A stretch of DNA of 64,000 nt, taken from the IMG/VR virus record IMGVR_UViG_3300031521_000015. One strand, 5' to 3'. Origin of the DNA: a virus. The notes under the pieces were generated by a model that saw only the letters and a list, made by a program, of their open reading frames with translations, had not been told where the DNA came from and did not search any database. Position 1 is the first letter of the stretch, and each line of letters starts with the position of its first letter. Shown here one piece after another: positions 9,906 through 36,252 of the stretch. A program made the translations under genes and the position numbers.

Positions 9906-9933
9906 ACTATATGTTTAATATACAAATAGTGTT
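9906..9933 (-). promoter_or_regulatory. SigK-like promoter upstream of tubRZ
   Basis: Minus strand AACA-N16-CATATAGT. Confidence 0.5.
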
Positions 9934-11469: not shown

Positions 11470-11489
11470 TATATTGAGGTGGGCTATTT

Positions 11490-12659
11490 ATGGCATATGA
11501 ACAAATATCAATGTTAATGGATAATACAAAACAATTAAATAACGTAAACTATACTTATAAATCATCGGCACTTATAGAAAGCTCTTATGAATTAACAATT
11601 ACAGAACAAAGAATAATCGCATTAGGATGTAAAAAATTACAGCCAATATATATAGAAAACAGACTAACACCGAATGATTTACAAAAAGTTTTAGGAGCAA
11701 TGAAATTCAGTTTGATTGAAATATCTGTGTCGGAATACAGAGAAGAATATGGAATTGTTGGTAATAAAGTATATGATTCAATACAAAATGCTACTGATGA
11801 TTTATATGAAAAAGAAATAGTATATTTTGATGATAATGGTAAACTTTGCAAAAGACGATGGATGTCATCGGTTAATTTTGATAGAAAAAATGGCAACGTA
11901 CAAATAACCTTTAATATAGATCTTATTTTAGATTTATTAGTTTTTAACGGTAAATTTGTTGCTTTGTTTTTTGATATGTCGCAAGATATAAAAAGTAAAT
12001 ATTCATTTCGTATGTATGAAATATTGAAAAATAGTGCTTATTTAGGAAAAATGAAAATTTCAGTCGAAGAATTTAAATTTAAGCTAAAGATAACGGATAA
12101 GTATACTGATTTTGCAGATTTAAATAAAAAGATAATAAAGCCCAATTTAGAAGTAATAAATTTATATAGTGATATATCTCTAGAATATAAAACAATTAGG
12201 TCTGGAAGGAATGTAAAGTGGTTATGTTTTAATATAACTAAAAAAAGAAATACTACTTTTTCAGTAGATAGCAAGTTTAAAGAAAAGATACCTTCGGCAT
12301 TTAATGAAATTTCTACTGCATTAGAAAAATATAATTGTGAATTAACTTCTACTGACGCACAAACATTATTCGATACAGCTATTGAAGTGACTAAAGAGAA
12401 ATATCCAGATACAAATCCTGTTAATTACATTTTAGAAAAAATCAACTATATGGATAGCTATATTACAAAAAAACCTATAGATAATATCATTGGATTCTTA
12501 AAAAACGCAATGGAAGAAGATTATGGATTAAAATCAATTGAAGTTCAACAAAAACAAACTAAATTCAATAATTTTGAAGGAAGAGAATATAATTTTGATA
12601 AACTTGAAGCTGGGTTATTAGGATATGAAGAAGTTGCAATAGAAGATGTAACTAAATAA
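11490..12659 (+). CDS. Rep_3/RepB plasmid replication initiator
   Basis: KSSALIESSYELTITEQRII, KSKYSFRMYEIL, SVEEFK motifs. Confidence 0.9.
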   Translation: MAYEQISMLMDNTKQLNNVNYTYKSSALIESSYELTITEQRIIALGCKKLQPIYIENRLTPNDLQKVLGAMKFSLIEISVSEYREEYGIVGNKVYDSIQNATDDLYEKEIVYFDDNGKLCKRRWMSSVNFDRKNGNVQITFNIDLILDLLVFNGKFVALFFDMSQDIKSKYSFRMYEILKNSAYLGKMKISVEEFKFKLKITDKYTDFADLNKKIIKPNLEVINLYSDISLEYKTIRSGRNVKWLCFNITKKRNTTFSVDSKFKEKIPSAFNEISTALEKYNCELTSTDAQTLFDTAIEVTKEKYPDTNPVNYILEKINYMDSYITKKPIDNIIGFLKNAMEEDYGLKSIEVQQKQTKFNNFEGREYNFDKLEAGLLGYEEVAIEDVTK

Positions 12660-16169: not shown

Positions 16170-18740
16170 ATGGATAATATAAATATTTGGTTTGCCAGAA
16201 ATAAAGATGGTGATATAGTTACAATAGACAAAGTTAATGAGGATAATAGATATGAAGAATATAAGTGTCCAATATGTGAAAGTAAACTTATTTCAAAATT
16301 AGGTGATATTAATAAACATCATTTTGCACATAAAGATGCTAGTAAATGTGATAGTGAGGCTCAAGTCCATTTCTTTGTTAAGAACGAATTAATAAAACAA
16401 GGATATGTTTTTAAAGTTAAATTAGATGATGAAATTAAAGAATTTGTCTGTAAAGAAGTTTTAATAGAACAATCTTATGAAACTGAATTTGGTACGTATA
16501 GACCTGATATAACTATAATAACTAAAAATGATGAAACTATTTACTTTGAAATAGCCAACACTAATAAAAAGAAAATAGAAGAGTATTTGGATATTTGGGT
16601 GAAACTCAATAATATAGTTGTTGAAGTTGAAACGAAAGAATTGATAGATGGAAATATAACTAATGAATTTAAAGCTTTATTCTATGAGGGGAAATGCTTT
16701 AATATCAGCAAAGACGAAAATGAATATTACGAACTAATAGGAAAAGTTAAATTAAACAAATATAAATATCCAATAGAGCAAGTTAATAAACTAAGCTGGT
16801 TATGGAAAGATATTAATAGATATTTATTAGGAGAATTAGAAATATCTGAGTTAAGTGATTTGATACAAGCTATAGAAGATGAAGAATTAAGAGAAATAGT
16901 AGTTTCCATATTGAGAAAAAATAAATGTACAGGAATTATGGAAGATTATATTAATTATAATGTGAATAATTTAAAAAATATTGAAATAAGTGAAAATTGC
17001 AATATTTCAGTAGATATTCCAACAAAATATTGTGATAAAATTTATGGATATTATGATTTGAAATATCTACTAATCGACTATGATAAAACGTTCTACGATA
17101 GGGTTAAATTTTATTCTATAAATGAAATAAGTAAGAAAACATTAAAGAATATCGAAAGATATAAGAAATTTATAGCAGTAAGTAATATAATAAAGGAAAA
17201 ATATATAGAAGACGAAATAAAAATAAGTTTCCATGAAGATTCAAATATATATCTATTTTATTATACAACATTTATATCTAATATAAAAATGGATGATGAA
17301 ATAGATGATATTGTGACTAATATTAAGAATGAAATAAACAAAGTAGATAAAAAAAAGATTAAAGCACAATTTGAATTCAATACATTATTAAATATGTGTA
17401 AGAATGGTGAGATAAGTTTGGAAGCCCTTGCAGATAATATAAAAAATAACAAATATAAAGAATATGTTGAAACAACATTAAAAATTAATAAAAATATTTT
17501 AAATGATTATCTAGATTTTAATATAAAAAAACACACAGAAATTTTAAATAATATAAATAGTTCAATATCATTTAAAACAGAATTACCAAGATTAATTCAT
17601 GATAGAATTTATGAATATTTTATTTTATCAGTGTATTGGGATGATTCTATTATTTTAAGTAATAAAATTATAAATTATGATACAAAAAATATATTATATG
17701 TATTAAACTATTTAAATGTATTTAATTACATTAAAGAAAAATATAATGAATATACTATTAAATATACTTCTTGTCGTGATAATTTTGAATTATATAAAGA
17801 TTCCATAAAGATATTTGATTATAGTTTAAAGGAAGATATTAAAAATATATATAATAAAATAGATAAACAGATATATTCTAGGGATAATTACATTAAAGAT
17901 ATGCAAGTTTTATGTAATTATATAAATAATAACTACAAATGCATATGTGATGCAAATCTAAATGATTATAATACATTATTGTCATTTACTTATTATTTTA
18001 CAAATGACGTATGTAGGAAATATAGTTTAGGAATAGGAAGATGTGTAGATTATAATTCAAATACAGAATATTATATAGATCATATAAACAGAATGATTAG
18101 AAATGACTATGATGAAATTGTATGTGAAGAAATAAATAAAATAGATTCTAATGTAAAAACCATACAATTAAATAATAGAGTATATTTAACATATGATACT
18201 GGATCGGTTATTACAGAAGATTATTTTGTATTTAATGAATATATTGAGGAAAATACCTTAAATACAATAATAAATTTTTATTATGAAAATATAAAAATTT
18301 CAGAAAAATATAATAATATATTTAAAGATTATTATATAACATGTAAAAATATTAAAAATAATTATTCTATTATATTACTAAATAATGGAATAGAAATTTA
18401 TTACAAAGAAGATTCAGTTTTTAAATCAGCTTATTTTAATATAGATTCTATAGATAATATCATTAATAATAAAGAATTTAAATTAGCATTAATTGAAAAT
18501 GTTGAAGATTTTGAAAATTATAATAAAATAAAAGAATTAGTAGATAATTTAAATCATAAATATATTAAAGTTAATAAACAGTGGAGATTTAAATTCAATG
18601 TAAGACGTAATACTATAGATATATATGAATCTATATCTAACTTTTTTAACTCTATACAAATTAATGAAATTAAATTTCAAGATATAGAAAAGAAAATAAG
18701 TGATAAGATAAGAAATTATGTTTATAAGATGGAGGAGTAA
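16170..18740 (+). CDS. CoiA-like nuclease with long C-terminal extension
   Basis: CPIC..HHFAH..C zinc motif, YRPDI and YFEI PD-(D/E)xK core; RBS favours second Met. Confidence 0.7.
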   Translation: MDNINIWFARNKDGDIVTIDKVNEDNRYEEYKCPICESKLISKLGDINKHHFAHKDASKCDSEAQVHFFVKNELIKQGYVFKVKLDDEIKEFVCKEVLIEQSYETEFGTYRPDITIITKNDETIYFEIANTNKKKIEEYLDIWVKLNNIVVEVETKELIDGNITNEFKALFYEGKCFNISKDENEYYELIGKVKLNKYKYPIEQVNKLSWLWKDINRYLLGELEISELSDLIQAIEDEELREIVVSILRKNKCTGIMEDYINYNVNNLKNIEISENCNISVDIPTKYCDKIYGYYDLKYLLIDYDKTFYDRVKFYSINEISKKTLKNIERYKKFIAVSNIIKEKYIEDEIKISFHEDSNIYLFYYTTFISNIKMDDEIDDIVTNIKNEINKVDKKKIKAQFEFNTLLNMCKNGEISLEALADNIKNNKYKEYVETTLKINKNILNDYLDFNIKKHTEILNNINSSISFKTELPRLIHDRIYEYFILSVYWDDSIILSNKIINYDTKNILYVLNYLNVFNYIKEKYNEYTIKYTSCRDNFELYKDSIKIFDYSLKEDIKNIYNKIDKQIYSRDNYIKDMQVLCNYINNNYKCICDANLNDYNTLLSFTYYFTNDVCRKYSLGIGRCVDYNSNTEYYIDHINRMIRNDYDEIVCEEINKIDSNVKTIQLNNRVYLTYDTGSVITEDYFVFNEYIEENTLNTIINFYYENIKISEKYNNIFKDYYITCKNIKNNYSIILLNNGIEIYYKEDSVFKSAYFNIDSIDNIINNKEFKLALIENVEDFENYNKIKELVDNLNHKYIKVNKQWRFKFNVRRNTIDIYESISNFFNSIQINEIKFQDIEKKISDKIRNYVYKMEE

Positions 18741-21713: not shown

Positions 21714-22302
21714 TCATGTAACGGAATAGAAAGTATACTCTAACACGCATGGTTATCACGTTTATAAGTGGTCAACATAAAAAATATATTTTATAAAAAT
21801 GGGTTATAAGCTAGTGATACCAACGTTTGTAGCGTTTTGGTCAAATTCTGTAAATGGAAAAGAAAAGACTGAGAAGTCGTAAATTATCAGCACAATGTCT
21901 AAGTGTGCAAAGGAGTTGTATTGATATTAAAGTACAATCCAGTAGGGTAGATTATGCCTAGCATATTTGCCCTACATAAAAAATAAAACAAATTAAAATA
22001 AAATAAAAAGATAGTATTGCTCAATTTTGAGTTTATTATACCAACGCCCTTAAGTGGGCGAAATACCTTTCATTAATTCATTTTTCATAACTCCCTTTAT
22101 TAATATTTTAATCTCTCTCCTGACATTGGCAAGGTACAAACAGGTATTCTTGCCTTGTTGGAGAAAGAAATAAGTAGGAGTAATATGAGTTTGTAATAAA
22201 TTAATGTATAAAGAAATACAGATTTAATAAGATTAATTCAACTTAATTGTTGTTTTAAATAAATTATAGGGTTGCGAACTGATTACGCAAGGAGGAATAG
22301 AA

Positions 22303-22773
22303 ATGGATAATAAAACAATTGAACAAAATAGAGATTCTTTAATTGAATCACTGATAACCGAAGAAAATGAATTACTACAAAAGATCAAACATTCAAGAGA
22401 TAATAAGGATTTTGGTACTTATAAGAATCTAATTAGAGCTTTAGCAGATGTAACTTCTTTGAAACAAAAGGAATTAGCTAATATACCTAGAGAAACTTGG
22501 ATAGAAAAGAGTTCTCATTATTACGAGGGTAGAGAAATAGAAAAAGGCGATAATGAATATATTGCCACTTGGGAACAAAAAGGTGATGAAATAAGAAATC
22601 ATAGAACATTTAAAGTAGAAAAAGAAGTACCTACTATAAAAATTGAGCTGAGTAATGATTATATTATAGAAGAAGATAGATTAACTATTCCTATGAAGAT
22701 TGGGAAGTATAATTATGAAATTCATGCTAGAAAAATTGATAATAAGTGGGTTACTGAAAGCAAAAGTATATAA
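22303..22773 (+). CDS. Hypothetical protein
   Basis: 156 aa, AGGAGG RBS. Confidence 0.7.
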   Translation: MDNKTIEQNRDSLIESLITEENELLQKIKHSRDNKDFGTYKNLIRALADVTSLKQKELANIPRETWIEKSSHYYEGREIEKGDNEYIATWEQKGDEIRNHRTFKVEKEVPTIKIELSNDYIIEEDRLTIPMKIGKYNYEIHARKIDNKWVTESKSI

Positions 22774-22880
22774 AATATAACTTTTAAATGACAAATTAAT
22801 GTATAAACAAATAGTAAATATCCCTAATTAAAGGGTTATAAATAAATTAAATTAAAACAGAGAGAAAGAGGAGAAATATT

Positions 22881-23132
22881 ATGTTATTAAATAAAGATAG
22901 AAAAGAAGAGTTGTTCGCACAAGGAGAATTTAAGTCAAAAGCTGAAAGATCAAGAGTCGCTAAAGCCAATGAAGAAGCTCGAGGTGCAGAATTAAATGCA
23001 GTTATAAAAGAATATACAGATTTCTTAAAAGTTGGTGAAAAATTAGTAATTGGTAATTTACATATAGAAAAGAAGCTAAAAGATGAAGAAGTAATTATTA
23101 AAGTTAAATATGTAGAACCAAAGGTTAAGTAA
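22881..23132 (+). CDS. Divergent HU-like protein lacking the DNA-binding arm
   Basis: AVIKEYTDFLKVGEKLVIG resembles the HU core; position similar to SPbeta yonN. Confidence 0.4.
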   Translation: MLLNKDRKEELFAQGEFKSKAERSRVAKANEEARGAELNAVIKEYTDFLKVGEKLVIGNLHIEKKLKDEEVIIKVKYVEPKVK

Positions 23133-23249
23133 TTAAATAAATTGGATATATCAAAAGAGATTTAATTGAGTTTTACTTATATTAAGTCTCTCTTTGACTA
23201 TTATTCACTTTGTCAATAGACATAATATATAATAGAGGGAGACTTACTT

Positions 23250-24725
23250 ATGAGCAAAAAGAATAAGGATAATGATATAATTTTAAGTTTTGTCGGTGGA
23301 AGTAGGGACGATATTTGTGGATCTGCTTTATTAATTAGCTATCCTATAGGAAATGACAAACATAAATGCGTTTGTCTAGAATGTGGCATGATACAAGGAG
23401 AATCAAAACCAGAGATAGAATATTCAATGAATAAAAAAATGGTTGAAAATATTCCAGTAGGAGGTATTTCGGGAGTGTTTTTAATGCACTCCCACGTCTG
23501 AGTAGACCATATTGGGAACACACCTATATTTGGACAAGATATATTCAAAGGTGAAATAATTACAACAGAAGAATGTTTAATGATATCTAAAGAATTATTA
23601 AAAGATAGTGTGTATTTACATGATTGTTTAATAAAAGGTTTAAAAGCAAAAGGGAAAAGACCTAAAAACTTATATACTGAATTAGATATGTATAAGATGT
23701 TAGAGAAGGTAAAAACAGTTGAAACACATCAAGTATATAAATTTGATGATTGGTTAAGTTATGAATTTTATAATTCTGGACATGTATTAGGTGGTACTCA
23801 ATTGAAACTTACTTTTAGACTACCTAACAATAATATAAAATCCTTAGTTTACACAAGCGATTTGGGATCAGATTACAATTTAAAATATAAACCATTTGTA
23901 AAGAAAAGAGATATAATTCCTAAGGCTTCAATGTACGTTTTTGAGGCAACTTATTCAAACTCTGAAAAGTGCTTTGATAAAAATTTAGTAGAAAAAGAAA
24001 GAAATGAACTAAAAGAAACTTTAACTAAATATTTAAAAAGTGGACACCGAGTATTTTTTCCTTCCTTTTCTTTCGGGCGTACCCAAGAGTTACAATTTTT
24101 AATAAATTCGTTTTTTAAAGATGAAGAATGGTTTAATGAAATACCAGTAACAATTGATGGAAGATTAACTAATTCTATATGTGATACTTATAGCAAGATA
24201 TTAAAATATGATGAATTTGAGGACTGGGAGAGAATAAAAAACTGGAAGAATTTTCGTTATAATAAAGAATATAAAGGTACTTTGGGAATATTATCTAAAA
24301 GAGAATGTGGAATTTACATAAGTTCTAGTGGATTTGTTCAACCTAAAACACGTAGTTGTGACTATGTTAAAAATTTTATGGGAGTTACAGGAGATCTAAT
24401 TTGTTTCGTAGGATATTACGGAGCTGAAGGTTCAATTTCTCATGAATTAGTTACTAGACCAATAGGCACTCCTATTAAAATTGATGGAAGTACATTAATA
24501 AAAAGTTGTGATGTTCTTACTCAGAAAACATTTTCGAGCCACATTCAACAAGAAGAAATTTTTAGCTACTGGAGTCAAATAAACACAAATAAGATTCTAA
24601 TACACCATTGTACTGAAGAAGGAAAAATTGAAATGAAAGAAAAGGGAACTGAATATCTACAAAGTAAAAATAAAACAACTAAAATTGTAGGAGTAAGTAA
24701 ATTTGCTTCACAATTCATTTTATAA
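23250..24725 (+). CDS. Metallo-beta-lactamase/beta-CASP nuclease interrupted by in-frame TGA (23499-23501)
   Basis: GSALL..LECG, HSHV*VDHIG, SGHVLGG, YTSDLG, EATY, GRTQE, FSSH; both ORF halves are in the same frame. Confidence 0.85.
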
Positions 24726-24758
24726 ACAAATTAATGTAGAAATAAGGAGAGAAATAGA

Positions 24759-24881
24759 ATGAAAAATTCAACTAAGCGTACATTATCAGGATTTAACTAT
24801 CAGTCCTTAAATAATTTACAAAACCAACCAATTAAAATGTTAAATGAAAAGAAAAAGAATAACGAAAAGGTGGAGAAATAA
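24759..24881 (+). CDS. Small hypothetical protein (40 aa)
   Basis: AAGGAG RBS; fills the gap before the yonK-like gene. Confidence 0.4.
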   Translation: MKNSTKRTLSGFNYQSLNNLQNQPIKMLNEKKKNNEKVEK

Positions 24882-24883
24882 TT

Positions 24884-25075
24884 ATGAAAGAAACTAAAAA
24901 TGTAAGTTTTTCAAAAGCAGTAATAACTGAGGAAGATGGAGAATTTAAGATTACAGAAGTTGGAAAAGATGATTCTAAAACATACAATCTAACAAATCAA
25001 ATTAGAAAATGGATTGGAGAAGACGGACTAACTGTAACAATTAAAAAGGATAATGATATACCATCTGAAGAATAA
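24884..25075 (+). CDS. yonK: YonK-like protein
   Basis: ITEVGKDDSKTYNL..IRKWIG..LTVTIKKDNDIP resembles SPbeta YonK; syntenic. Confidence 0.6.
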   Translation: MKETKNVSFSKAVITEEDGEFKITEVGKDDSKTYNLTNQIRKWIGEDGLTVTIKKDNDIPSEE

Positions 25076-25080
25076 AATGT

Positions 25081-25730
25081 GAACAAAGGCATGTACTAGA
25101 AATAGACGTGACCTTTCATTAAAAGAACTGTTTTATTTGCTTATCTACCATGTGTAGAATAAGAGCGTTGGAATTCGTATTCGATAACCAACTATTTAAA
25201 GTGGAAGTTTAGACTAAGTTGAAATATGCTTAGTTAATCTTCATACCTCAGTATTGCAAACTAAGGGTTTTTGTGATAATAGAATTGTGTATTCTTCGGA
25301 AATAATTCTATATTATTGGCTGATGATACTTATGAGATTGATAGAATTGTAAGTGGAAGTCTTCTAATGGTTTTAGGTGATCCATTGATATCTTACTCAT
25401 ATTATGAGGAAATAGAAAAACCTATGATACAATTTACGCTTCACAATGTGCGACAAAAATACATTGTATTAGTGGTGAGAACGATACAATTGACGTTCAA
25501 AAGGCACAAGGAGTTGATATAGGTTGTCTTCTTAAGAGTGGATGGATATCCCACAAAACCTACTACAAAATAATTCTTCACAAGGCTATGACTTTACTAC
25601 TTAAAGTTAACCCTCAAATAGTGCCGATTATATAATAGTTGAAGTACAAAACTATTACTGCATAAGATTAGTGGTTTTCCATACGGGTGCAGATTCTTAA
25701 ATAATTCCAGATAAGTTTATGGAATATTAT
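25081..25730 (+). ncRNA. Candidate large structured ncRNA
   Basis: More than 10 consecutive hairpins, a UUCG loop, long-range GGCAC/GTGCC pairing, no credible CDS. Confidence 0.55.
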
Positions 25731-25855
25731 CTCAATTTATATTATAAACTAAAATATTCAATATGTAAATAGAAAATAAATTAAATATATAATAAAACTC
25801 ACATAGGTATTGTGAGCTTTTAATATGTTTAAAATTAATTAAAAATTAAAATAAG

Positions 25856-26083
25856 ATGGAGAGATATGAGATGGTTATGAAAAACGATGGTAGGGAATCA
25901 ACTAAAATGAAAAAGAATAAGCAACACAAAAAATATAAGGATAGAAAATGTAGTAATAAGGAATGTGGAAATTTGTTAAACATTGATGAAATGGTAATTA
26001 ACAATGATTATGATATATTACCTGATGGTAGTTATGCTTTTTATTGTTCTTATTGTGACAATACTGAAATTGTAAAATTATAA
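25856..26083 (+). CDS. Small zinc-ribbon protein
   Basis: CSNKEC and CSYC. Confidence 0.55.
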   Translation: MERYEMVMKNDGRESTKMKKNKQHKKYKDRKCSNKECGNLLNIDEMVINNDYDILPDGSYAFYCSYCDNTEIVKL

Positions 26084-26136
26084 TCTAAATAAAATAAAAG
26101 ATTAAATAAGAATATAATAATGAGGGAGAAATTATT

Positions 26137-27153
26137 ATGAATGATGAAAAGTTAAAAATAAGACAAAATGAAGAAAAAGAAGAATATATTTGGAGAATGT
26201 ACGAAAATAAAATTGCCAATGAACTAACTAATAATCAAGTTAGAGATGTAATATGTAATATGTTAAACATCAATGTCAGAGAAAGTTATTTAAGAGGAAT
26301 AGCAAAAAACTTCGGGATAGGATATAAAAAGAAAGAAATAAATGATAACTTTGACAAATCAGTTATGATTATTAATGATATTCACGCACCTTTTGAAAGA
26401 GAAGATTTATTAGAGATAATAACAAAACATGCGAATGAAATTGACACCTTAGTTATTGGTGGAGATTTTATGGATTGTGAAACCATTTCTAGTTTTCCTA
26501 AGATAAATAGAAGTAGTCTTAATGAAGAATTGATCTATTCATATAATTTAATGAAGAAAATCAGAAAGATATTAAACAAAGGTCAAAGAATTGTATTAAT
26601 AAATGGAAACCACGAAGAAAGGCTTAAAATGATGATTTCTAAAATGCATGAGAAAGACTTACAAAAATTTATCAATCCTAATATTTTAGAAATGTTGGTA
26701 GATGGATTTACCATTTATGAAGATAACAAGAAAATAAAATATGAGGGTGTTCAAGGGGTCACATATATACCACATTGGTATGTTAATATTGATAATAAAA
26801 TAATAATATCACATCCAAAAGATTTTTCAGGTGTTGATGGTAAGATGTGTGAGAAGATAAGTGAACATTTTTTAAATAAACATGAGGAATTTGAGATACT
26901 TTTATTTGCACATACTCATAAGTATAGTCAAATGAAAGTTAGCAGAAGACAAGGCGTTTATGTAGTTGAAAATGGTTGCTTGTGTAAAAATCACGAGTAC
27001 GCTGATATAGGGAAGCTTGGCTACACACCACAGGACTATTGCTATACAATTATAAAATATAATAATGAAGAGAAAATAAATTATAACAATATTCAAGTTT
27101 ATCATTTAGATGACTTAGAAACAAAACAAGAAAATTATAAAGTATTTATTTAA
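26137..27153 (+). CDS. Calcineurin-like metallophosphoesterase
   Basis: DIH, GDFMD, GNHE, HTH motifs. Confidence 0.85.
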   Translation: MNDEKLKIRQNEEKEEYIWRMYENKIANELTNNQVRDVICNMLNINVRESYLRGIAKNFGIGYKKKEINDNFDKSVMIINDIHAPFEREDLLEIITKHANEIDTLVIGGDFMDCETISSFPKINRSSLNEELIYSYNLMKKIRKILNKGQRIVLINGNHEERLKMMISKMHEKDLQKFINPNILEMLVDGFTIYEDNKKIKYEGVQGVTYIPHWYVNIDNKIIISHPKDFSGVDGKMCEKISEHFLNKHEEFEILLFAHTHKYSQMKVSRRQGVYVVENGCLCKNHEYADIGKLGYTPQDYCYTIIKYNNEEKINYNNIQVYHLDDLETKQENYKVFI

Positions 27154-27177
27154 CAAATTAATTTAATGAGGTGTAAT

Positions 27178-27342
27178 ATGAATACAAAAATCATAATAAA
27201 TCCAACTATAGCTAGGCAACTTTTACATAAAGGACATGCTATAGTAGATATTAAACCTAAAAAAGAAAATCAAAAAGAAACTGTATTTGTATTTGATAAT
27301 ACAGAACAATTTAAAAATGATTTGACTTCTATTTCTAAATAG
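27178..27342 (+). CDS. Small DUF5659-like protein (54 aa)
   Basis: GAGGTG RBS; IARQLLHKGHAIVDIKPKKEN..TVFVF. Confidence 0.65.
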   Translation: MNTKIIINPTIARQLLHKGHAIVDIKPKKENQKETVFVFDNTEQFKNDLTSISK

Positions 27343-27389
27343 GAGTCTTTTTATTATAAAAAATTCATAGAAAGAAGGAATATATAGAA

Positions 27390-28187
27390 ATGGAGAAATA
27401 TTATGGATTTGTTTATATAACAACAAACATGATAAATGGAAAAAGATACATAGGACAACATAAATTTAAAAAAGATTGGAAATATTATTTGGGTAGTGGA
27501 GTAATAATAAAAAGAGCTATTAAAAAATATGGACGAGAAAACTTTGTACGTGATATAGTGGCATTAACCTATACAAAAGAAGAATTAAATCATTTAGAAG
27601 AAGAATTTATAAAAAATTATAATGCAGTATATGATGATAATTATTATAATATATCAAGTGCTTCAATGGGTGGCAATGGAACTATGGACGGAAAAACAGA
27701 GGAAGAAATTAAAATTATAAGGCATAAGATGAGTGAATCACATAAAAAGTATACTCAAGAAAATAGCTATTGGTTTGGGAAAAATAAAACAGATGAAACA
27801 AAAGATAAAATAAGCAATTCATTAAAAGGAAGATTTGTAGGTGATAAACACCCTTTATATGGAATAAGAAGATTAGACATGGAGGGAGAAAATCATCCAC
27901 AAGCGAAAAGAGTAATTTGCATTACAACTGACAAAGTATTCAATACAATAAAAGAAGCAGGAGAATATTATAATATTAAATCTCCTTCTCATATCGGAGG
28001 ATGTTGTAGACGTGAAAGAAATTATTGTGGAAAATTAGATGATGGAACTAGACTAGAATGGCAGTATTATGAGGATTGTGATAGTGTTGATAAAGTTCAA
28101 TGTACTACACACGCAAGTCAATCACTGATTGTAGTTAACTATGATGGTGTTGAATATATTAGAGATATAAATTTACAAATCAATTAG
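27390..28187 (+). CDS. GIY-YIG homing endonuclease with NUMOD3/NUMOD1 domains
   Basis: GFVYITTNMINGKRYIGQ, YLGSG, ETKDKIS, KRVIC..F.TIKEA. Confidence 0.9.
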   Translation: MEKYYGFVYITTNMINGKRYIGQHKFKKDWKYYLGSGVIIKRAIKKYGRENFVRDIVALTYTKEELNHLEEEFIKNYNAVYDDNYYNISSASMGGNGTMDGKTEEEIKIIRHKMSESHKKYTQENSYWFGKNKTDETKDKISNSLKGRFVGDKHPLYGIRRLDMEGENHPQAKRVICITTDKVFNTIKEAGEYYNIKSPSHIGGCCRRERNYCGKLDDGTRLEWQYYEDCDSVDKVQCTTHASQSLIVVNYDGVEYIRDINLQIN

Positions 28188-28210
28188 TTAAAAAATAAAA
28201 TAAAGGATTA

Positions 28211-28807
28211 ATGGTGAAAGTAATGGGAGAATATCAAGTAATAAATCCGATACATAATGAAATAAAGATAAATTCTGCTTTAAGGGATAAAACAGTATAT
28301 TTAGTAGGACAAATTGATGATGATACTTCATTAGAAATAACTCATTTTCTACGTAGGATCAATGACAATGATTTAAAATCAAACAATATAAATAAACAAA
28401 TCACAATAATCATTGATTCCTATGGTGGTTCAGTGTGGTCTGGAAATGCAATTATTGGAATGATGAATTATTTAAAATCTAAAGGATACACAATTACAGG
28501 AATAGTACAATCTATGTGCTTCAGCATGGCATTCGATATTTTATGCAACTGTGACAAAAGATATGGATATTCTCATTCTGAATATATGATACACCAAAGT
28601 CAAGGTGGTAATCCTTATGGGGCATTAGTGAAAGCTGAAAGAATGGTTGCATATAATAAAAAGCAATGGAATAAATCTGTTGAATATTATATTAAAGATA
28701 CTAAAATCACAAGAGAACAAATAGAAAACTTATACGAAACAGATTTAGAATGGTTTATGTTGAGTGAAGAAGCTTTGGAATTAAATGTTATTAATAAAAT
28801 AATATAG
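28211..28807 (+). CDS. clpP: ClpP-like protease subunit
   Basis: IDSYGGSV, FSMA (catalytic Ser), MIHQ, LSEEALEL. Confidence 0.8.
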   Translation: MVKVMGEYQVINPIHNEIKINSALRDKTVYLVGQIDDDTSLEITHFLRRINDNDLKSNNINKQITIIIDSYGGSVWSGNAIIGMMNYLKSKGYTITGIVQSMCFSMAFDILCNCDKRYGYSHSEYMIHQSQGGNPYGALVKAERMVAYNKKQWNKSVEYYIKDTKITREQIENLYETDLEWFMLSEEALELNVINKII

Positions 28808-28817
28808 AAGGATATAG

Positions 28818-29201
28818 GTGAGAGAAATGTGTGATATTAATGAAAATGAATTAAATGAAGATATGGAAGATGATACATCATTGGAATCTTTATCTAAAGA
28901 TGAATTGATTGATGTAATTGAACAGCTAATGAACTCAAAAGATGTAGAAGTTAATACTGAAAATATACAAAACCTTGGTTTAAACGAAAAAGAATTTGCA
29001 AAAGGATTGTCATCAGTGTCTCTAATAGCTGGTCAATATACTGGGCTAAAAAATGTTGGAATTGATAGTGCAAGTGCTATTGATATATTAATTAATATGG
29101 CTAATACAGAATTCAATCTAAAATTAAATGAAATGACATGCACTAATAATAAAGCAGTTGCAGGAATTCAACAAACAATATCTGAACAAAATCAAGTATA
29201 A
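28818..29201 (+). CDS. Hypothetical protein
   Basis: 127-aa ORF in operon. Confidence 0.65.
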   Translation: MREMCDINENELNEDMEDDTSLESLSKDELIDVIEQLMNSKDVEVNTENIQNLGLNEKEFAKGLSSVSLIAGQYTGLKNVGIDSASAIDILINMANTEFNLKLNEMTCTNNKAVAGIQQTISEQNQV

Positions 29202-29219
29202 AGGTGAGGTAAAGAATTA

Positions 29220-29879
29220 ATGGATTATAAATTTAAAATTGATAAGTTAATTGGTTTAATACTAGATTCGGTAGAAAATGAACAAAATACTAATCTAATA
29301 CTAGATAGTTCTATTGCATATGATGTTTCAAAAGAATTATTATATAAATTTAATGCTAACTTTGAATATCAAGATGGTAATTCTTTTGATGAATTATTAA
29401 AAGAAAATGACGTATTATCATTATTTACTACATGTAGTGAAGATGGAAGAGTTAGACATTTTTTAGGAACAGTTTTTGATGAAGATGGTAATACATATCC
29501 AGATGAAGATTCTGAGGTTATTTTTATTCAAGATAGTTTATATGACTGTATTGATACGGATGTATTTGAAGGGCAAATCGGAATATTAATAGATAATGAA
29601 GAAGAATTTAAAAGAATTGTTGAAGCATTGAGAGAAGATGAGTGCGATGGAGATTGCGATAATTGTACATTACACGATGATGACGAAGATTACGAAAAGG
29701 AAATTAATGAGGATTTATTTGAAACTTTAGCAGATGAAATGTTAGTAAGTATTGGAGAATATGCTGAAAATGATAAAGAATTAGCATACGAAATTATCTG
29801 TGATAAGTTAGAAGAAGCTTATTTTATGGGAAGAGAAGATTTTAGAGATGAACTACAAGATAAATTATATAAAATCTAA
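29220..29879 (+). CDS. Acidic hypothetical protein
   Basis: 219 aa, CDGDCDNC motif, very acidic. Confidence 0.7.
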   Translation: MDYKFKIDKLIGLILDSVENEQNTNLILDSSIAYDVSKELLYKFNANFEYQDGNSFDELLKENDVLSLFTTCSEDGRVRHFLGTVFDEDGNTYPDEDSEVIFIQDSLYDCIDTDVFEGQIGILIDNEEEFKRIVEALREDECDGDCDNCTLHDDDEDYEKEINEDLFETLADEMLVSIGEYAENDKELAYEIICDKLEEAYFMGREDFRDELQDKLYKI

Positions 29880-30006
29880 CAAATTAATGTAGAAAATACA
29901 GAATAAAAGTGACTAGAATATTATTTTATTCTAGTCTTTAATATTTTATGAAACTTGTAAAAAGGTAACTTAAAGTTATCTTAATTAACTCATAAATAAT
30001 CATATG

Positions 30007-30079
30007 AGAAATTGAGAGAGCCGACTTTCAGTTTCTTTTTTAGAGGTTTATTTGTTATCGGCAAATTAACAAATAAGTC
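30007..30079 (+). promoter_or_regulatory. Two-hairpin kissing-loop leader
   Basis: Loop GCCGA of hairpin 1 is complementary to loop TCGGC of hairpin 2. Confidence 0.5.
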
Positions 30080-30095
30080 ATAAAATACGAAAGGA

Positions 30096-31496
30096 ATGAT
30101 TATAATTATGGGTAAAAATAACAGATTTATAGTAAATAAAGAAATATTGACAAAAACAAAACAAGGTGGAGTAGATTGGTTAGATAATAAAGAAATTGAA
30201 GTTTACTTTACAGACACAAAAGAAAGTTATATTTTAAAAGTTGAAGACACACTAAAGGACAAAAATAACATCACAAAATTATTATTGTCTTATAGTGGAA
30301 TAAATTATAAAAAGTATTTACAAGTTGGACAAGTATTAAATGGGAACTTAGAGCACTTATTTAGTCATTGGGATATAAGGGGCAATAAATTAAGACCATA
30401 TAGGTTATCTGATGATGGTACATATTGGATTGGTATAGCAAGCAATGATAAAGAATTCTATTTTAATGGAAAAAATTCAGAAGAAATAATGAAGCATAGT
30501 TGGTATATATCTAATGGATATTTAGTGTGTACATTCACAAAAGATAATATATATAATACTATAAGATTAAATCGGTTGGTTCTAAATGCAATAGATAGAA
30601 ATGTTGTAGTAAATCATTGTGGTGGTAACAAAATGGATAATAGAATAGAAATGTTATCATTGTCAGACCATGAAGATAATATGAAAGAACTATTGCCTAG
30701 TAAATTAAATAATACCGGAATTACTGGATTATCGTTTAAGAATAATAAATATAATATATCTTGTAGCGTAAATGGATTTAGTTATACTTGCGAATATTAT
30801 AATACAGACGAAGCCTTAAAAGATTTATTAATAATTCAAAGAAATTATGGCTATAGGCACAATGAAAATTTATATTATATGTTAGATAATATAACTGAAG
30901 ATTATATAGATACTTTAGTTAGTAAAGTAGAAAACAATATAAGTAAAAGAAAAACAAACCCAATAGTATGCAAGAATACATTTGAGTTGTCTGAGGATGG
31001 TTTGTTTTATTGGATGTATGATAAGAACAATAAAAGATGTAAAATATCAATTGAAGACTTAGAATTAGTTAAACAAGGTAATTGGAGATATGCTTTAAAT
31101 AATTCTAAAGAATACTTTAGTGGTGATATTATATGTGATGGGAAAAGAAAAGGTATATTTTTACATAGGTATTTGATGGAGCTAATTGATACTAAATATA
31201 AACATTGGTATGTAGACCATTTGAATAGTAATGGTTTAAATAATACTAGAGAGAATATAGTGATTACTGATGCACAAGGAAATGGTATTAATAAGAATAG
31301 AAAAGATATTAAAATTGAAGATAATAATACATATAGGTGTAAGATAGTTCTAAATAAAAAGAAATATTTCAAAACTTTTCATACATACGAAGAAGCAATG
31401 AAATGCAGAGATGAAATAATAGTAGAATTAATGAAAAATAGAGTTGAATTTAGAACAAAAGAAGAATTAGATAACTATTTAAAGACAATAAAATAA
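30096..31496 (+). CDS. Tandem HNH homing endonuclease with AP2-like domains
   Basis: VNHCGGNKMDNR and LHR..VDHLNSNGLNNTRENI. Confidence 0.8.
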   Translation: MIIIMGKNNRFIVNKEILTKTKQGGVDWLDNKEIEVYFTDTKESYILKVEDTLKDKNNITKLLLSYSGINYKKYLQVGQVLNGNLEHLFSHWDIRGNKLRPYRLSDDGTYWIGIASNDKEFYFNGKNSEEIMKHSWYISNGYLVCTFTKDNIYNTIRLNRLVLNAIDRNVVVNHCGGNKMDNRIEMLSLSDHEDNMKELLPSKLNNTGITGLSFKNNKYNISCSVNGFSYTCEYYNTDEALKDLLIIQRNYGYRHNENLYYMLDNITEDYIDTLVSKVENNISKRKTNPIVCKNTFELSEDGLFYWMYDKNNKRCKISIEDLELVKQGNWRYALNNSKEYFSGDIICDGKRKGIFLHRYLMELIDTKYKHWYVDHLNSNGLNNTRENIVITDAQGNGINKNRKDIKIEDNNTYRCKIVLNKKKYFKTFHTYEEAMKCRDEIIVELMKNRVEFRTKEELDNYLKTIK

Positions 31497-31609
31497 ATTA
31501 TTAGGATTAGGTTGAAATATATCTAGTCCTTTTTATTGTTTTGTAATGTTTATCTACATGGTAAGCAATTAGAATAATAATTATTTAAAAAATTAAAGGA
31601 AGTGAAAAA

Positions 31610-32815
31610 ATGGCAGTTAGTAAAACAACTAAAGGCACTGCAACTAAAACTACTGTCATAAAGGACAAAATAGAATGTAGTTGTTGTGGGAAAGAAAAAG
31701 TGTTAGCTGAATTTTATAAATCTAATTCTAGGCTAAATAGGTATAGGAAAAAGATACATATTTGTAAATCATGTTTATGGGATTTGTGTAGAGATTTAAT
31801 AGAAGAAAGCAGAGATATGCAAGTAGGAATATACAGAACTTGTATGTATATTGATGCTCCGTTTTTTGAAACTCCTTTTTCTTCGGCAATAGATGAAGTT
31901 TGTATGAAAGATGGATTAAAATTAGATATATCTGATGATATAGAAAGTCAAGTTAAAGTTTTTCAAAAATACATGAAGAATATAAATTCATTAGGACAAT
32001 ATGAACAATATACTTATGAAAATGGAGAAAGTATTGATTCAAAATCAGTAGTAGTTAAAAAGGAAGAAAAAGAAATAGCGTTAAATACAACAGATAGAGA
32101 TAAACAAAATGAAAATGATGTAATTTCTATGTTGGGATATGACCCTTTTGAAACAGAAAATAAAAAAGATAGAAGATATTTATTCAATCGTTTAGTAGAT
32201 ATGCTTGATGATAGCGTTCTTGAAGATAATTTATTATTAATGAGCATTATAGAAATAGTAAAGGGATTTAATCAGATTGATAAAATAAACGAAGGAATAT
32301 CAATGTATACTACAGATGTTGAAAAATTAACAAAAAACAATGGAAGTATTAAATCATTGATTGATACAAAGAAAAATCTAATGACTACTATATTAAAAAC
32401 TGCTGAAGATAATGGAATTTCAACTAAATTTAATACAACAAAATCAAAAGGTTCGGGAACTTTGGCTGGTATTATGAAGAGATTACAAGATATTGGATTA
32501 GATGAAGCAAAGGTTAATTTATATGATATTGAAACATCACAATCGATGAGACAAATAGCAGATATAAGTCATCAAAGTATAATGAGTCAATTACAGTTAA
32601 ATGAATCAGATTATACTGATATGATAGCACAACAAAAAGATGCTATATATAATATGAATAATGAATTAATAAAAGCAAAAGAAGAACTAAGAAAAACTAA
32701 AATTTACTTAAAATCTCAAGGATTGATTTTAGAAGAAATCAATAATGTGGTAGAAGTAGATTTTGAAGAAGATAATAATAATTTTGGATTGGGTAATAGA
32801 ACATTGTTAGAATAG
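31610..32815 (+). CDS. Zinc-finger phage protein upstream of terminase (possible small terminase)
   Basis: CSCCG..FYKS..CKSC; position before terL. Confidence 0.5.
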   Translation: MAVSKTTKGTATKTTVIKDKIECSCCGKEKVLAEFYKSNSRLNRYRKKIHICKSCLWDLCRDLIEESRDMQVGIYRTCMYIDAPFFETPFSSAIDEVCMKDGLKLDISDDIESQVKVFQKYMKNINSLGQYEQYTYENGESIDSKSVVVKKEEKEIALNTTDRDKQNENDVISMLGYDPFETENKKDRRYLFNRLVDMLDDSVLEDNLLLMSIIEIVKGFNQIDKINEGISMYTTDVEKLTKNNGSIKSLIDTKKNLMTTILKTAEDNGISTKFNTTKSKGSGTLAGIMKRLQDIGLDEAKVNLYDIETSQSMRQIADISHQSIMSQLQLNESDYTDMIAQQKDAIYNMNNELIKAKEELRKTKIYLKSQGLILEEINNVVEVDFEEDNNNFGLGNRTLLE

Positions 32816-32831
32816 ACAAAGGAGATTAAGT

Positions 32832-33038
32832 ATGGATAATAAATATATAATATTTTCAGTATTGATTGAATGTGAAGAAAATGGAATAAAAAGATATGAT
32901 TCTACAACTTTAAGTGACTATATGAATGGGCAATCAGAAGAACAATGTTGGGAACAAACAAGAATATTTTGCGAAGAAGCTGGGAAGAAATTTAATGCAA
33001 AATGGATATTATGTGGTAGTCATATAGTAACTTTTTAA
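32832..33038 (+). CDS. Hypothetical protein
   Basis: AAGGAG RBS. Confidence 0.6.
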   Translation: MDNKYIIFSVLIECEENGIKRYDSTTLSDYMNGQSEEQCWEQTRIFCEEAGKKFNAKWILCGSHIVTF

Positions 33039-33058
33039 CAAATTAAAACAATAAATTA

Positions 33059-33087
33059 TTGACAATGATATCCTAATAAGGTATTAT
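33059..33087 (+). promoter_or_regulatory. SigA promoter of endonuclease cassette 2
   Basis: TTGACA-N17-TATTAT. Confidence 0.8.
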
Positions 33088-33092
33088 TATAT

Positions 33093-33198
33093 TAGAAACT
33101 AGATAAGGAGTTATAAACCGTATCGAAAAGGAGTATCCGAACTCCCTGTTTCTATTTTTATAAATTTCGGAAAATAAATTAAAGTACGAATCGGAGGT
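33093..33198 (+). ncRNA. Structured leader RNA, copy 2
   Basis: P1 TAGAAAC/GTTTCTA; P2 loop TTATAA; P3 loop TCCGA complementary to TCGGA at 33167 and 33191 (RBS). Confidence 0.75.
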
Positions 33199-33206
33199 AT
33201 TACATT

Positions 33207-34304
33207 ATGGAAACTAAAACATGTACTAAATGTGGACAAGAGTTCCCAATGTCTAAAGAATATTTTGAACCCAGAAAAGAATCAAAAGATGGATTCAGAA
33301 ATCAATGTAGAGATTGCAGAAATATCAATAGAAGAAATATATATGATGATAAATATAAAAGTGAAGATAATAGAAGATGGCAACAAGAAGAAATAGATAT
33401 ATTGAATAAATATTATGAAATTATGAGTAACAATGAATTACAAGAAAAGTATTTAAACACTAGAACTATTTCTCAAATAATAGATTATGCAAGTAAAAAA
33501 TTAAACTTACATAAACATGATGACGTTAAAATATATTATAGTGATGGTACAACAATGGGGTGGACAAAAGAAGATGATGAATATTTATTAAAAAACTATC
33601 CATCAACAAATTTTAAAGAAATGGAATTAGCTTTAGGAAAAAACAGTTTTACAATAACAGCTAGAGCTATTAAAAAGGGAATACAAAGAGATAATAAGTA
33701 TTCTGAAGAAGAAATAAATATCGTAAAAAAGTATTATGCAGACAATGAAAACAAATGGATTATTGATAATTTTATGAGTAGTAGAAGTAAGACTGAAATA
33801 ATAGGATTAGCAAATCGTTTAGGAATAAATAAAAATGATGAACTGATATTTCAAATAAGAGTTGATACTGGCTTAAAAAATTTAAAATGTATACCTGACC
33901 AAACAGGTTCTAATAGTCCTTGTTGGAAAGGTGGAACAGACGTATTAAGATTATATGTAAGAAACCATATTAGAAAATGGAACAAAGATAGTTTAAAATA
34001 TTATAATAATAAATGTTTTATTAGTGGAGATTCAGAAAATTTGATAATCCATCATGGATACTCTTTTAAAGACATATTGAATGAGACTATAAAAGAATTA
34101 GGACTTACTTATAATAATGATTTATCTAATTATAGTAATGGTGAACTTAGAAATATAATAGATTTATCAAATGAAAAACACTATAAATATGGTTTTGGAA
34201 TCCCTTTAACCAAAGAATTACATTTATTATTTCATAAAACTTATGGTTTTGTAAATTACACAAATGAACAGTTAATAGAATTTAAAAATAATTATGCTAG
34301 TTGA
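33207..34304 (+). CDS. HNH-type endonuclease with zinc finger and Myb-like repeats
   Basis: CTKC..CRDC; W..EE repeats; CFISG..IHH..LHLLFHKTYG. Confidence 0.75.
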   Translation: METKTCTKCGQEFPMSKEYFEPRKESKDGFRNQCRDCRNINRRNIYDDKYKSEDNRRWQQEEIDILNKYYEIMSNNELQEKYLNTRTISQIIDYASKKLNLHKHDDVKIYYSDGTTMGWTKEDDEYLLKNYPSTNFKEMELALGKNSFTITARAIKKGIQRDNKYSEEEINIVKKYYADNENKWIIDNFMSSRSKTEIIGLANRLGINKNDELIFQIRVDTGLKNLKCIPDQTGSNSPCWKGGTDVLRLYVRNHIRKWNKDSLKYYNNKCFISGDSENLIIHHGYSFKDILNETIKELGLTYNNDLSNYSNGELRNIIDLSNEKHYKYGFGIPLTKELHLLFHKTYGFVNYTNEQLIEFKNNYAS

Positions 34305-34400
34305 TAATAAATAAGCTTCAATAACTGAAGGCGTGGTAACACGTCTTTTGTTGCGTTTATGCAAACTTTATTGATATAAAAAGGTGGTGTGGGCAAAAAG

Positions 34401-36252
34401 ATGGGAATTGGAAAGCAAAACTTATCACAAAGAAAATTAGAAGGATATATGAAATATGTAGAAATGATACAGTGGGGCAGAAAAAATCCTGCACGAACGA
34501 TTCGTTGAGGATTTCATGGGAATTCAATTTTTAGATTTACAAAAATATATATTTATGAATATGTGGACTACGCCATTTGTATTGTTATGCCAATGTAGGA
34601 ATAGTGGGAAAAGTACGATTTCAGCTCCATTTTTGATGGCGAAATCCATATTATACCCAAACTTTTATAGTTATATAATATCAACAAATGGTAGTCAAGC
34701 TCAGGAAACTTTCTTAAAAATAGAAAAAATAACCAAGAGACAATTATCTTCATTTACGGGTTTAACAGATTTCTTTCAAAATGAAATAATTACTTCAAAT
34801 GCTAACAAAGATGGGTTCACTCATAAACCAGAGTCATTTACTTTCGAAGTATTTAATGGTAGTAAAGTACATACATTGAACTCAAACTATGATGGATCAC
34901 GTGGGAAAAGAAGCATGTGCAATTTTTATGACGAAACTGGATTTATGTTAGAAAAAGCTTTTGGTGCAACTGAACCATTTACAACACAAAATGCAGACTT
35001 TAAGTTAGGAGGAGATATTGACGTATCACTAGAACCACAAAGTTTTCCAAACCAACTTATATACGCTTCTTCGGCATCAAGTATAGATACTTATTTTTTT
35101 AAAAAATATAAAGAATTTAGTAAACAAATGCTATTAGGAAATAAAAATTATTTCTGTGCTGATATTAAGTGTGATTTAGTTTTAAATCCTATGTTTAATG
35201 GTAAATTATATCCAGTATCTTTGCTAACACAAGAAAAAATAGATAATGCTATGAGAGAAAATAAAGAACAAGCTCTTAGAGAATACCATAATATGTTTTC
35301 TAAAGAAGGTGGAGAACAACAACCATTTAAAAGAGGACAAATAATAAAAAATAGTGAAGTCAGAAGACCAATGTTGGTAAACGAAGGAAATATTGAACGA
35401 CATATCACAGCTTTTTATGATCCTGCAAGAAGTTTTGATGACTCTGCTGTATTGTTTGCTGAATTTATGAAAGATAAGGAATTAGGATGGACTTGTAAAA
35501 TAATAAATGCAGTAAGATTAGTAGATATAGGAACGAAGAAAAAAATACCAATGAGAACACCTGAACAAATAGAGTATATTAGAAATTTATTAGTAGATTA
35601 TAATGGTCAAGGATTTGGAGAATATGAAAATATAGGTGCAATATTGGTAGATTCAGGAGCTGGTGGAGCAGGAGTTAATATTGCAGATTATTTTATGGAA
35701 GAGTGGACAGATAAAAAAGGAATGAAAAGAAAAGGTTTGATAGATGCTATAGAATCTAAAGAATATACAAATAAATTTCCTGAAGCTGTAGATAAAATGC
35801 GATTAATTTCTCCTAAAAAATATAGGACTGAAATGTTTGATGCCTTGGTGGAAATGATTAATTTAGATTTAGTTTCGTTTACGGAAACATATGACATGAA
35901 AGGATTTATAAGTATTCCTGTAGAAACAGAAATAATATATAAAGACGAAAAAACAAAAACAGATAAAAAACAAAAAGAGATAAAATATAAGCAAGCAAAT
36001 TTATGTTTCGAAGAACAATTGGCTTTAAAAACTATAGATAAACTAAAAGAACAATTGGTGCAAATATATAGATTCGATAATGCTGAAAGAACTTCACATA
36101 AATACGCTTTATCTCCTGAAAAACAAAATACTATGCATGATGACTTGGCTTATTGTGGAGCAATGATGGGTTGGTATTTAAAACAATTAAGGAGAGAAAA
36201 TATAACTAATGAAGATGATGATGATGAAGACCGTCAATGGGTATTTTGGTAA
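34401..36252 (+). CDS. terL: Terminase large subunit; N-terminal segment out of frame because of a 4-nt insert at 34497-34500
   Basis: RNSGKS Walker A, FYDE Walker B, YDPARSFDDS and HDD nuclease motifs; upstream frame reads ..QWGRKNPAR, downstream frame FVEDFMG. Confidence 0.9.

Follow-up and report, generated by a model that had tools for sequence, protein, structure and literature searches.

Two interrupted genes in the phage window

The window analysed here is a stretch of 64,000 nucleotides (nt) from an uncultured SPbeta-like phage from peat, IMG/VR record IMGVR_UViG_3300031521_000015, and is AT-rich, with 26% GC. Two of its genes, encoding a beta-CASP nuclease and the large terminase (TerL), are each interrupted by a few bases whose removal restores a conserved protein. 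A sequence-only reading had described two late-region genes with inserts of 4-6 nt, flanked by codons for the same amino acid. This description was accurate, the codons being GTC and GTA with a 6-nt insert in the nuclease and CGA and CGA with a 4-nt insert in TerL. The features at the two sites are as follows.

23250-23498, plus strand: beta-CASP/MBL nuclease, part 1; 83 codons, the last being the proposed take-off codon GTC (23496-23498); open in 11 of 11 interrupted alleles.
23471-23493, plus strand: stem-loop of 8 bp, GGGAGUGU / GCACUCCC, ending 2 nt 5' of the take-off codon.
23499-23504, plus strand: 6-nt coding gap, composed of the stop TGA (23499-23501) and the proposed landing codon GTA (23502-23504); decoding would resume at GAC 23505.
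23505-24725, plus strand: beta-CASP nuclease, part 2; 406 codons and a stop, beginning DHIGN; PF10996 Beta-Casp.
33207-34304, plus strand: HNH/EndoVII-like gene, a putative homing endonuclease, between a YonG-like gene and TerL; phrog_2255 and phrog_1035, weak matches (E ~1e-6).
34401-34496, plus strand: TerL, part 1; 32 codons, the last being the proposed take-off codon CGA (34494-34496).
34486-34512, plus strand: TerL hairpin whose apex is occupied by the gap (AUCCU..ACGAA CGA UUCGU..AGGAU); -9.2 kcal/mol, z -2.9.
34497-34500, plus strand: TerL 4-nt gap, composed of A and then CGA, the proposed landing codon; identical to the second ACGA of the tandem duplication 34493-34500.
34501-36252, plus strand: TerL, part 2; FVEDFMGIQ... 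to the stop; a possible restart site lies inside (GAGGA 34507-34511, ATG 34516).

At the nuclease site the bases read cac tcc cac GTC TGA GTA gac cat, and the open reading frame (ORF) 23250-23501 ends with ...FLMHSHV at an in-frame TGA. Apart from the TGA at 23499-23501, the frame 23250-24725 is continuous. Removal of the 6 nt gives HSHVDH and restores the HxHxDH motif, which has its plain spacing in 83 of 83 distinct uninterrupted homologue alleles. The insert was found identical in two IMG/VR contigs of other samples (100% and 90.7% nucleotide identity) and is therefore not an assembly artefact. GTC is the rarest Val codon in the window (4.2% of Val codons) and occurred at the take-off position in none of 78 uninterrupted alleles.

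In TerL, the frame from ATG 34401 reads ...QWGRKNPAR, with the last Arg at CGA 34494-34496, and continues as TIR to a stop at 34506-34508; the +1 frame reads R (CGA 34498-34500) FVEDFMGIQ... and enters a 578-aa ORF. Removal of 4 nt gives WGRKNPARFVEDF. All of 26 TerL relatives (44-57% identity) are uninterrupted here and have W-G-R-x-x-P-x-[RK]-F-x-[ED], and because they keep this fixed spacing, exactly 4 nt have to be skipped between CGA 34494 and TTC 34501. The closer relatives P0129 and P0131 (78-80%) are also uninterrupted and have NPA[KR]FVEEF. We rejected the placement of the gap as 'cgt TGAG gat' (34506-34509), by analogy with the nuclease gap of L038, because the +1 frame encodes the conserved RFVE. 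The next zero-frame codon after the take-off CGA is ACG, a rare codon (4.5% of Thr codons). Eight independently assembled contigs (JGI, ENA, Logan) and a further contig, L175, share the identical insert, so it is not an assembly artefact either. The TerL gene of L175 has 86% nucleotide identity with that of the window, with a synonymous divergence (dS) of 0.94 and a ratio of nonsynonymous to synonymous divergence (dN/dS) of 0.08; over the first 100 codons the values are 0.56 and 0.015. From these sequences, a lethal lesion is not expected in two diverged, otherwise intact terminase genes.

Where the window is syntenic with its relatives, no further interrupted gene was found, in agreement with the sequence-only reading, which had held that all other structural genes stay open.

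Nuclease gaps in relatives

Nuclease homologues were collected by protein search. Many of them were full-length (~491 aa), and the DNA of the truncated forms was then fetched. The truncated forms made up 14 of ~60 close homologues in the protein database, and every one was broken at one codon boundary, between x and D of HxHxDH. At this spot 11 distinct gap variants of 3-24 nt were found, in alleles that are 39-90% identical. Each entry below gives the codon that precedes the gap, then the intervening bases and the final 3 nt. G001 is contig L033 (IMGVR_UViG_3300028664_000009), and G002 is L034.

Window, G001, G002, L047: GTC / TGA / GTA, 6 nt.
L040: GTC / CCCA / GTA, 7 nt.
L043: GTC / TGACG / GTA, 8 nt.
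L094: GTT / TGAAA / GTA, 8 nt.
L041: GTC / TGACGACTCA / GTT, 13 nt.
L042: GTC / 21 nt / GTA, 24 nt.
L038: GTC / TGAG, 4 nt.
L039: TGT / TAGC, 4 nt.
L035: TGT / TGA, 3 nt.
L044: CTG / TGATA, 5 nt.

The scan of relatives for matched-codon inserts, which the sequence-only reading had proposed as a check, thus gave synonymous flanks in 7 of the 11 nuclease forms, all with Val codons for take-off and landing (six of the seven with GTC as take-off), and in two of five TerL gaps of relatives. A stop directly follows the take-off codon in 10 of the 11 nuclease forms. That reading had also named uninterrupted alleles in close relatives as what would tell against it; close relatives were found to keep the inserts.

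The N and C parts are open and have no other lesions in all interrupted nuclease alleles. Between gap-bearing alleles dN/dS was 0.04-0.09 both 5' and 3' of the gap (dS 0.3-1.0). The values of the window nuclease for the N and C parts were 0.088 and 0.043 against L034, and 0.066 and 0.065 against L040, in the same range of dS. Both parts are under strong purifying selection, and gap-bearing alleles therefore encode a needed protein, including the stretch from the gap to the next ATG. Taken together, the alignments strongly support the nuclease site as a conserved coding gap, which varies in length and interior and keeps its position.

Two distant nuclease homologues, on the IMG/VR 3300045988 contigs L071 and L078, have at ~1660 an in-frame TAG in place of the Gln of their sisters (GEY*ANN and GEYQANN), which suggests that these phages read TAG as Gln. 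A scan of genome contigs found distant, uninterrupted nuclease homologues in Clostridia only, and no cultured carrier of a gap allele.

Stem-loops at the gaps

The window has a strong stem of 8 bp at 23471-23493 just 5' of the nuclease gap; the 45-nt fold has -16.8 kcal/mol and z -3.7. The 33 nt ending at the take-off codon fold with -5.8 to -14.3 kcal/mol in 11 of 11 interrupted nuclease alleles, compared with a median of -2.4 kcal/mol in the 83 distinct uninterrupted alleles, a single one of which reaches -9.5 (Mann-Whitney p=7e-8, uncorrected for phylogeny). The closest uninterrupted alleles, with nearly the same peptide, fold with -2.6 to -3.6; L171, with VEGVFLLHAHV, has -2.6. The stem sequence differs by clade (GGGAGUG/CACUCCC, GGCUGUG/CACAGCC and GGGCGUG/CACGCCC), with compensatory changes at two base pairs and 94% of cells paired, and the observed covariation score was reached by none of 500 shuffles.

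The inserts had been described as centred in a hairpin. This is the case for TerL, whose gap lies at the apex of its hairpin; at the nuclease site, by contrast, the hairpin around the insert itself has only 4 bp (GUCU/AGAC, z -0.16) and is not significant alone.

TerL gaps in relatives

The 5' region of TerL is a hot spot for gaps among the relatives. We found at least five further TerL gaps of 5-11 nt, three of them with matched or near-matched flanking codons; ATG/GTG is the near-match.

G001: ggc TGAGT aaa, 5 nt, inside Walker A.
G001: CTT TGA CAA CTT, 9 nt, in frame, after DTFL.
L171, L174: AAT CGGTGCTA AAC ggg, 11 nt, rare CGG first, between SRN and GGKST.
L172, L173: ATG TGA GTG gac, 6 nt, between EFM and DYQ.
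L176: gag CGG TAA ggg, 6 nt, between KLE and GYL.

L171-L174 have one identical nuclease protein and differing TerL gaps, with divergence highest around the gaps. The 7-mer CTGAGTA, common to the window nuclease gap and the Walker A gap of G001, showed no overall enrichment. Much larger TerL inserts of 272 nt and 1131 nt, at residue ~170-178, occur in L023/L024 (3438-3711) and L026 (1869-3001); these are probably introns or endonuclease-bearing elements, distinct from the mini-gaps. A frameshift in G002 (L034, reverse strand, ~16,880-16,900) was rejected as a gap because it lies in an A8 run (gaaaaaaaattgagg); it falls in the homologue of the window ORF 29220-29879 and is an ordinary homopolymer indel, a slippage site or a sequencing error.

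The interruption in the window TerL might be read as a plain split gene, in which translation terminates at TGA 34506 and restarts at ATG 34516 by means of the Shine-Dalgarno sequence GAGGA. The products would be a 35-aa peptide and a TerL lacking its first 38 residues, working alone or with the peptide. A spacing of 4 nt separates the GAGGA from ATG 34516, and the stop lies 7 nt upstream of this ATG. Moreover, Met is present at this position in the window, L175 and L176, and Phe in the uninterrupted close relatives P0129 and P0131. However, the three Met-bearing alleles are mutually closest relatives, so that the correlation may be inherited. In L176 the gap lies 31 codons further upstream, and the stretch from there to this Met (GYLKYCDIIQWGRKNPARFVEYF) must be translated through because it is conserved and has no start codon. 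The N-terminal QWGR..NP..F.E is kept in all 26 relatives, which argues that it is needed in cis. We consider a restart unlikely; a ribosomal hop, and not a restart, predicts the TerL junction peptide NPARFVEDFMGIQ.

Another explanation, for both genes, is that they are dead: the element would be decaying or dependent on a helper and the interruptions would be inactivating lesions, or else they would be footprints left by endonuclease cutting. The ACGA-ACGA of TerL is an ordinary tandem duplication beside an HNH-like gene, and the window-type TerL alleles in peat share at least 99.9% identity, so close that dN/dS among the peat contigs has no power to test selection. G001 has four interruptions in 18 kb, including a plain change of TGC to TGA in ClpP. 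Nevertheless, decay is very improbable in view of the low dN/dS on both sides of the nuclease gap at dS up to 1.0, of 11 forms at one codon boundary in genes free of other lesions, and of the same TerL insert in a 14% divergent background with dN/dS of 0.08. The sequence-only reading had preferred a recoding system to random decay on the basis of the two window sites. The comparison of relatives supports recoding of the bypass type strongly for the nuclease and moderately for the terminase.

Short translational bypassing as the proposed mechanism

We propose that the gaps in both genes are probably crossed by programmed short translational bypassing, a natural "stop-hop". For the nuclease gap we hold this mechanism with good confidence; for the TerL gap of the window the chances are about even. 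The hallmarks of bypassing can be seen at both window sites. The joined ORF parts restore the conserved protein (HSHV joined to DH, compared with 83 alleles; NPAR joined to FVEDF, compared with 26 relatives), and take-off and landing codons are matched, with Val codons in the nuclease and Arg codons in TerL. The codon that would occupy the A site is a stop in the nuclease and the rare ACG in TerL, the latter being weaker evidence. Structure in the mRNA is predicted at or 5' of both take-off codons; the TerL hairpin is possibly a product of the duplication.

In the nuclease, peptidyl-tRNA(Val) would sit on the rare, wobble-paired GUC 23496-23498 with the weak stop UGA in the A site, while the 8-bp hairpin re-forms behind the ribosome. 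The tRNA would then unpair, the mRNA would slide by 6 nt, and the tRNA would re-pair with the cognate GUA 23502-23504. Decoding would resume at GAC and give the intact HSHVDH zinc site, so that 9 nt encode one residue. In TerL, tRNA(Arg) would move from CGA 34494 to CGA 34498 (+4) with ACG in the A site, giving ...NPARFVEDF.... The predicted junction peptides are ...MHSHVDHIGNTPIFGQDIFK for the nuclease and ...NPARFVEDFMGIQFLDLQK for TerL. The gaps are present in the DNA; the hop step, its efficiency and any biological role are inferred.

Several other ways of reading through the interruptions were considered. The stop could be read through, the ribosome could shift by +1 or +2, or TGA could be a sense codon of the host, so that the motif gains 1-8 residues. 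TGA ends only two of the 39 long ORFs in the window, and UGA is a leaky stop in Bacillus. However, all 83 uninterrupted alleles keep strict HxHxDH spacing, shifts of 0, +1 and +2 would all be required, one form has TAG and another has no stop, and there is one in-frame TGA per gene and no suppressor tRNA was found in the window. We therefore regard this explanation as highly improbable. An RF2-type +1 frameshift was rejected because the inserts are 6 and 4 nt (3-24 nt in relatives) and +1 adds residues inside invariant motifs. A phage with stop-codon reassignment or a suppressor tRNA was likewise rejected, given the single in-frame TGA per gene, the lack of a tRNA in the window and the existence of frame-shifting forms.

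The inserts could also be cut from the mRNA before translation, as a micro-intron or by the hairpin-directed cut-and-ligate editing that the sequence-only reading had offered. Hairpins lie at or beside both sites, and removal at the RNA level does not need matched codons, which would suit the four short nuclease gaps and two TerL gaps that are unmatched. Yet the 64-kb window gave no match to an RNA ligase, a tRNA or an Rfam family, and RNA removal accounts neither for the rare codons at take-off and the stops immediately 3' of them nor for the matched flanks (Val/Val, Leu/Leu, Asn/Asn and Arg/Arg). We know of no precedent for excision of 3-24 nt of RNA in bacteria or phages, and give this explanation very little credence. 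Group I or group II introns and inteins were rejected on account of the insert size of 4-6 nt and the lack of an Rfam match in the window.

A number of observations weigh against bypassing or limit it. A synonymous landing codon is missing in 4 of the 11 nuclease forms (all of 3-5 nt) and in two TerL gaps, and by hand inspection these unmatched forms mostly pair at only two of three positions; classical re-pairing therefore fails to explain every case, and a looser slide may operate at the unmatched forms of 3-5 nt. The p-values for the nuclease are inflated, as interrupted alleles share phylogenetic history. In E. coli, synthetic stop-hops have a low efficiency (~1%). The TerL site is the more exposed: its take-off codon is not followed by a stop, the matched codons and the hairpin arise automatically from a plain 4-nt tandem duplication of ACGA, and GAGGA-N4-ATG (34507-34518) permits the restart. 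Over the 100 nt 5' of the insert (34401-34500) the window and L175 are identical, with two mismatches in the next 50 nt, so this segment may have been recently transferred. Finally, the TGA in the ClpP-like gene of G001 has no extra bases, and thus needs readthrough and not a hop, or is a nonsense mutation. It lies at L033 6098-6100 ('tta atg TGA cac caa'), directly 5' of the codon for the catalytic His in the motif M-x-H-Q, at a position where G002 (86% identical) has TGC (Cys). The sequence-only reading had treated the two window sites as an equal, shared design, and this did not survive: TerL has a plain 4-nt duplication with no stop after take-off, and a restart as an alternative.

Apparent mobility and probable origin of the gaps

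We built a quick IQ-TREE tree of 60 nuclease alleles, with 12 gap-bearing rows. Nine gap changes were needed on it, eight of them forced by well-supported branches, and several gap-bearing alleles were sister to an uninterrupted allele. With at least eight gains or losses, the gap therefore behaves as mobile. The HNH-like gene lies 190 nt upstream of the window TerL gap. It is absent at this place in L175, L172, L038 and L041, and L175 thus has the gap without this gene. No endonuclease gene adjoins the nuclease gap.

The gains and losses in the nuclease, the differing TerL gaps in near-identical phages and the HNH-like neighbour suggest that the gaps had a mobile or selfish origin, comparable to T4 gene 60 with MobA. 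Most likely, they originated in mobile or gene-conversion events and were spread by them, in a group of phages that has many homing endonucleases, and were tolerated because ribosomes could hop them. The same observations leave without support the earlier idea that the interruptions gate lytic genes in the lysogen; a regulatory role for the gaps is possible but unsupported.

On balance, we lean somewhat towards a family of mobile mini coding gaps (3-24 nt) in SPbeta-like phages of Clostridia-type hosts, located in codons of catalytic motifs and hopped by host ribosomes, which would be the first natural 'stop-hops', among them a hop in which 9 nt (GUC UGA GUA) give one residue. If this is true, the motifs struck are, in the beta-CASP nuclease, HxHxDH and, in TerL, Walker A and the N-terminal region, and bypassing would be a common way for phages to tolerate insertions, possibly serving protection of endonuclease targets or tuning of expression, instead of an oddity of T4. 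The natural length series at one codon boundary (3, 4, 5, 6, 7, 8, 13 and 24 nt), each with its own 5' hairpin, together with several terminase gaps, would be a ready mutational set for what a ribosome needs for take-off, slide and landing over very short distances. Gene callers split or truncate genes with such gaps, and the phages could be misjudged as defective.

Gene order and occurrence of the phage

The window has, in series, the beta-CASP nuclease, a YonK-like ORF, a metallophosphoesterase, a GIY-YIG endonuclease, ClpP, a tandem-HNH protein, a YonG-like gene, the HNH-like gene, TerL, the portal and structural genes. The order in Bacillus phage SPbeta is yonO, yonN, yonK, yonJ, yonG, yonF, yonE, yonD, and the window genes stand in this same order. 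The Pfam families YonK, YonJ, YonG and YonD were found in relatives of the window. Blastn against GenBank phages gave no match, and tblastn gave distant Bacillus-phage terminases only. At least 18 peat metagenome DNA runs contain half or more, or a large part, of the window, and six bioreactor RNA runs contain up to 22% of its sampled words.

Upstream of the late genes, at 4842-12659, there are an FtsK/SpoIIIE ATPase, a tubulin (TubZ-like), a MerR regulator and a Rep3-type plasmid initiator. With its Rep3, TubZ-like and FtsK genes, the element may have a phage-plasmid lifestyle instead of being an integrated prophage. A block of 3177 nt that includes the nuclease (window 21960-25136, L033 1-3177) is 100% identical to G001, and its flanks have 64-86% identity or no match, which indicates sharp mosaicism between co-occurring phages. 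The ~1.4 kb 3' of the nuclease (24726-26136) contain short ORFs only, among them the YonK-like ORF at 24884-25075; Rfam at the gathering threshold gave no match in this region.

Comparison with known bypassing systems

Bypassing has been shown experimentally in T4 gene 60 and in yeast mitochondria, and has been proposed for one Streptomyces phage terminase. Our searches of the literature gave no account of gaps like these in SPbeta-like phages, in beta-CASP nucleases or in the terminases concerned. The classic example of a stop-hop is reportedly CUU UAG CUA, from Weiss et al. 1987. The stop-hop design is exact in GUC UGA GUA of the window and in CUU UGA CAA CUU of G001, whereas those of E. coli are artificial. 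In these synthetic stop-hops matched codons stand on either side of a stop, and 9 nt encode one residue (PMC5009743, its ref. B54). Natural short in-frame stop-hops have long been presumed, but none was known according to a 2016 review (PMC5009743).

The gaps resemble the 'Byp' elements in the mitochondria of Magnusiomyces capitatus, in being numerous short, mobile-looking coding inserts with matched flanking codons that are, or would be, 'corrected' by translation. Byp inserts are 27-55 nt long. Unlike the phage gaps they are mitochondrial, longer and GC-rich, and there is no sequence relation. The Byp elements comprise 81 bypassed inserts in coding genes (PMC5009743).

For the large terminase of the Streptomyces phage phiHau3 and related prophages, it has been proposed that UUA triggers a bypass of inserts of 10 nt (and 7 nt); reporter and mass-spectrometry data in E. 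coli exist for phiHau3 (PMC10732093). Like these, the gaps described here include short, frame-breaking inserts in the large terminase, whose flanks join to a conserved protein and which begin at a codon that is slow to decode; for both, a 5' stem-loop has been proposed, as has a landing codon. The trigger is different, being mostly a stop (UGA, once UAG) or rare ACG, CGG or CCC, and not the developmentally regulated UUA; no UUA-type (UUA/bldA) logic was seen at the gaps here. AT-rich hosts and a far larger number of natural variants are further differences, and the present gaps are known from sequence alone.

In T4 gene 60, a 50-nt bypass lies within a MobA homing-endonuclease cassette (PMC5009743; bioRxiv 10.1101/2022.08.31.505936, Manning and Atkins), and bypassing is stimulated by a 5' stem-loop that forms as the mRNA exits the ribosome (PMC5009743). 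The present gaps differ in length (3-24 nt and not 50 nt), in the genes affected (beta-CASP nuclease and TerL) and in their carriers, which are low-GC Firmicutes-type SPbeta-like phages. They also have no sequence homology with the cassette and no endonuclease beside the nuclease gap, and some forms are unmatched. Like gene 60, they are non-coding gaps in essential phage enzyme genes, with matched codons, a stop after the take-off codon and a stem-loop 5' of or at take-off. In both systems the gap has been inserted repeatedly at one site in different phages, and an HNH-type gene adjoins TerL in the window.

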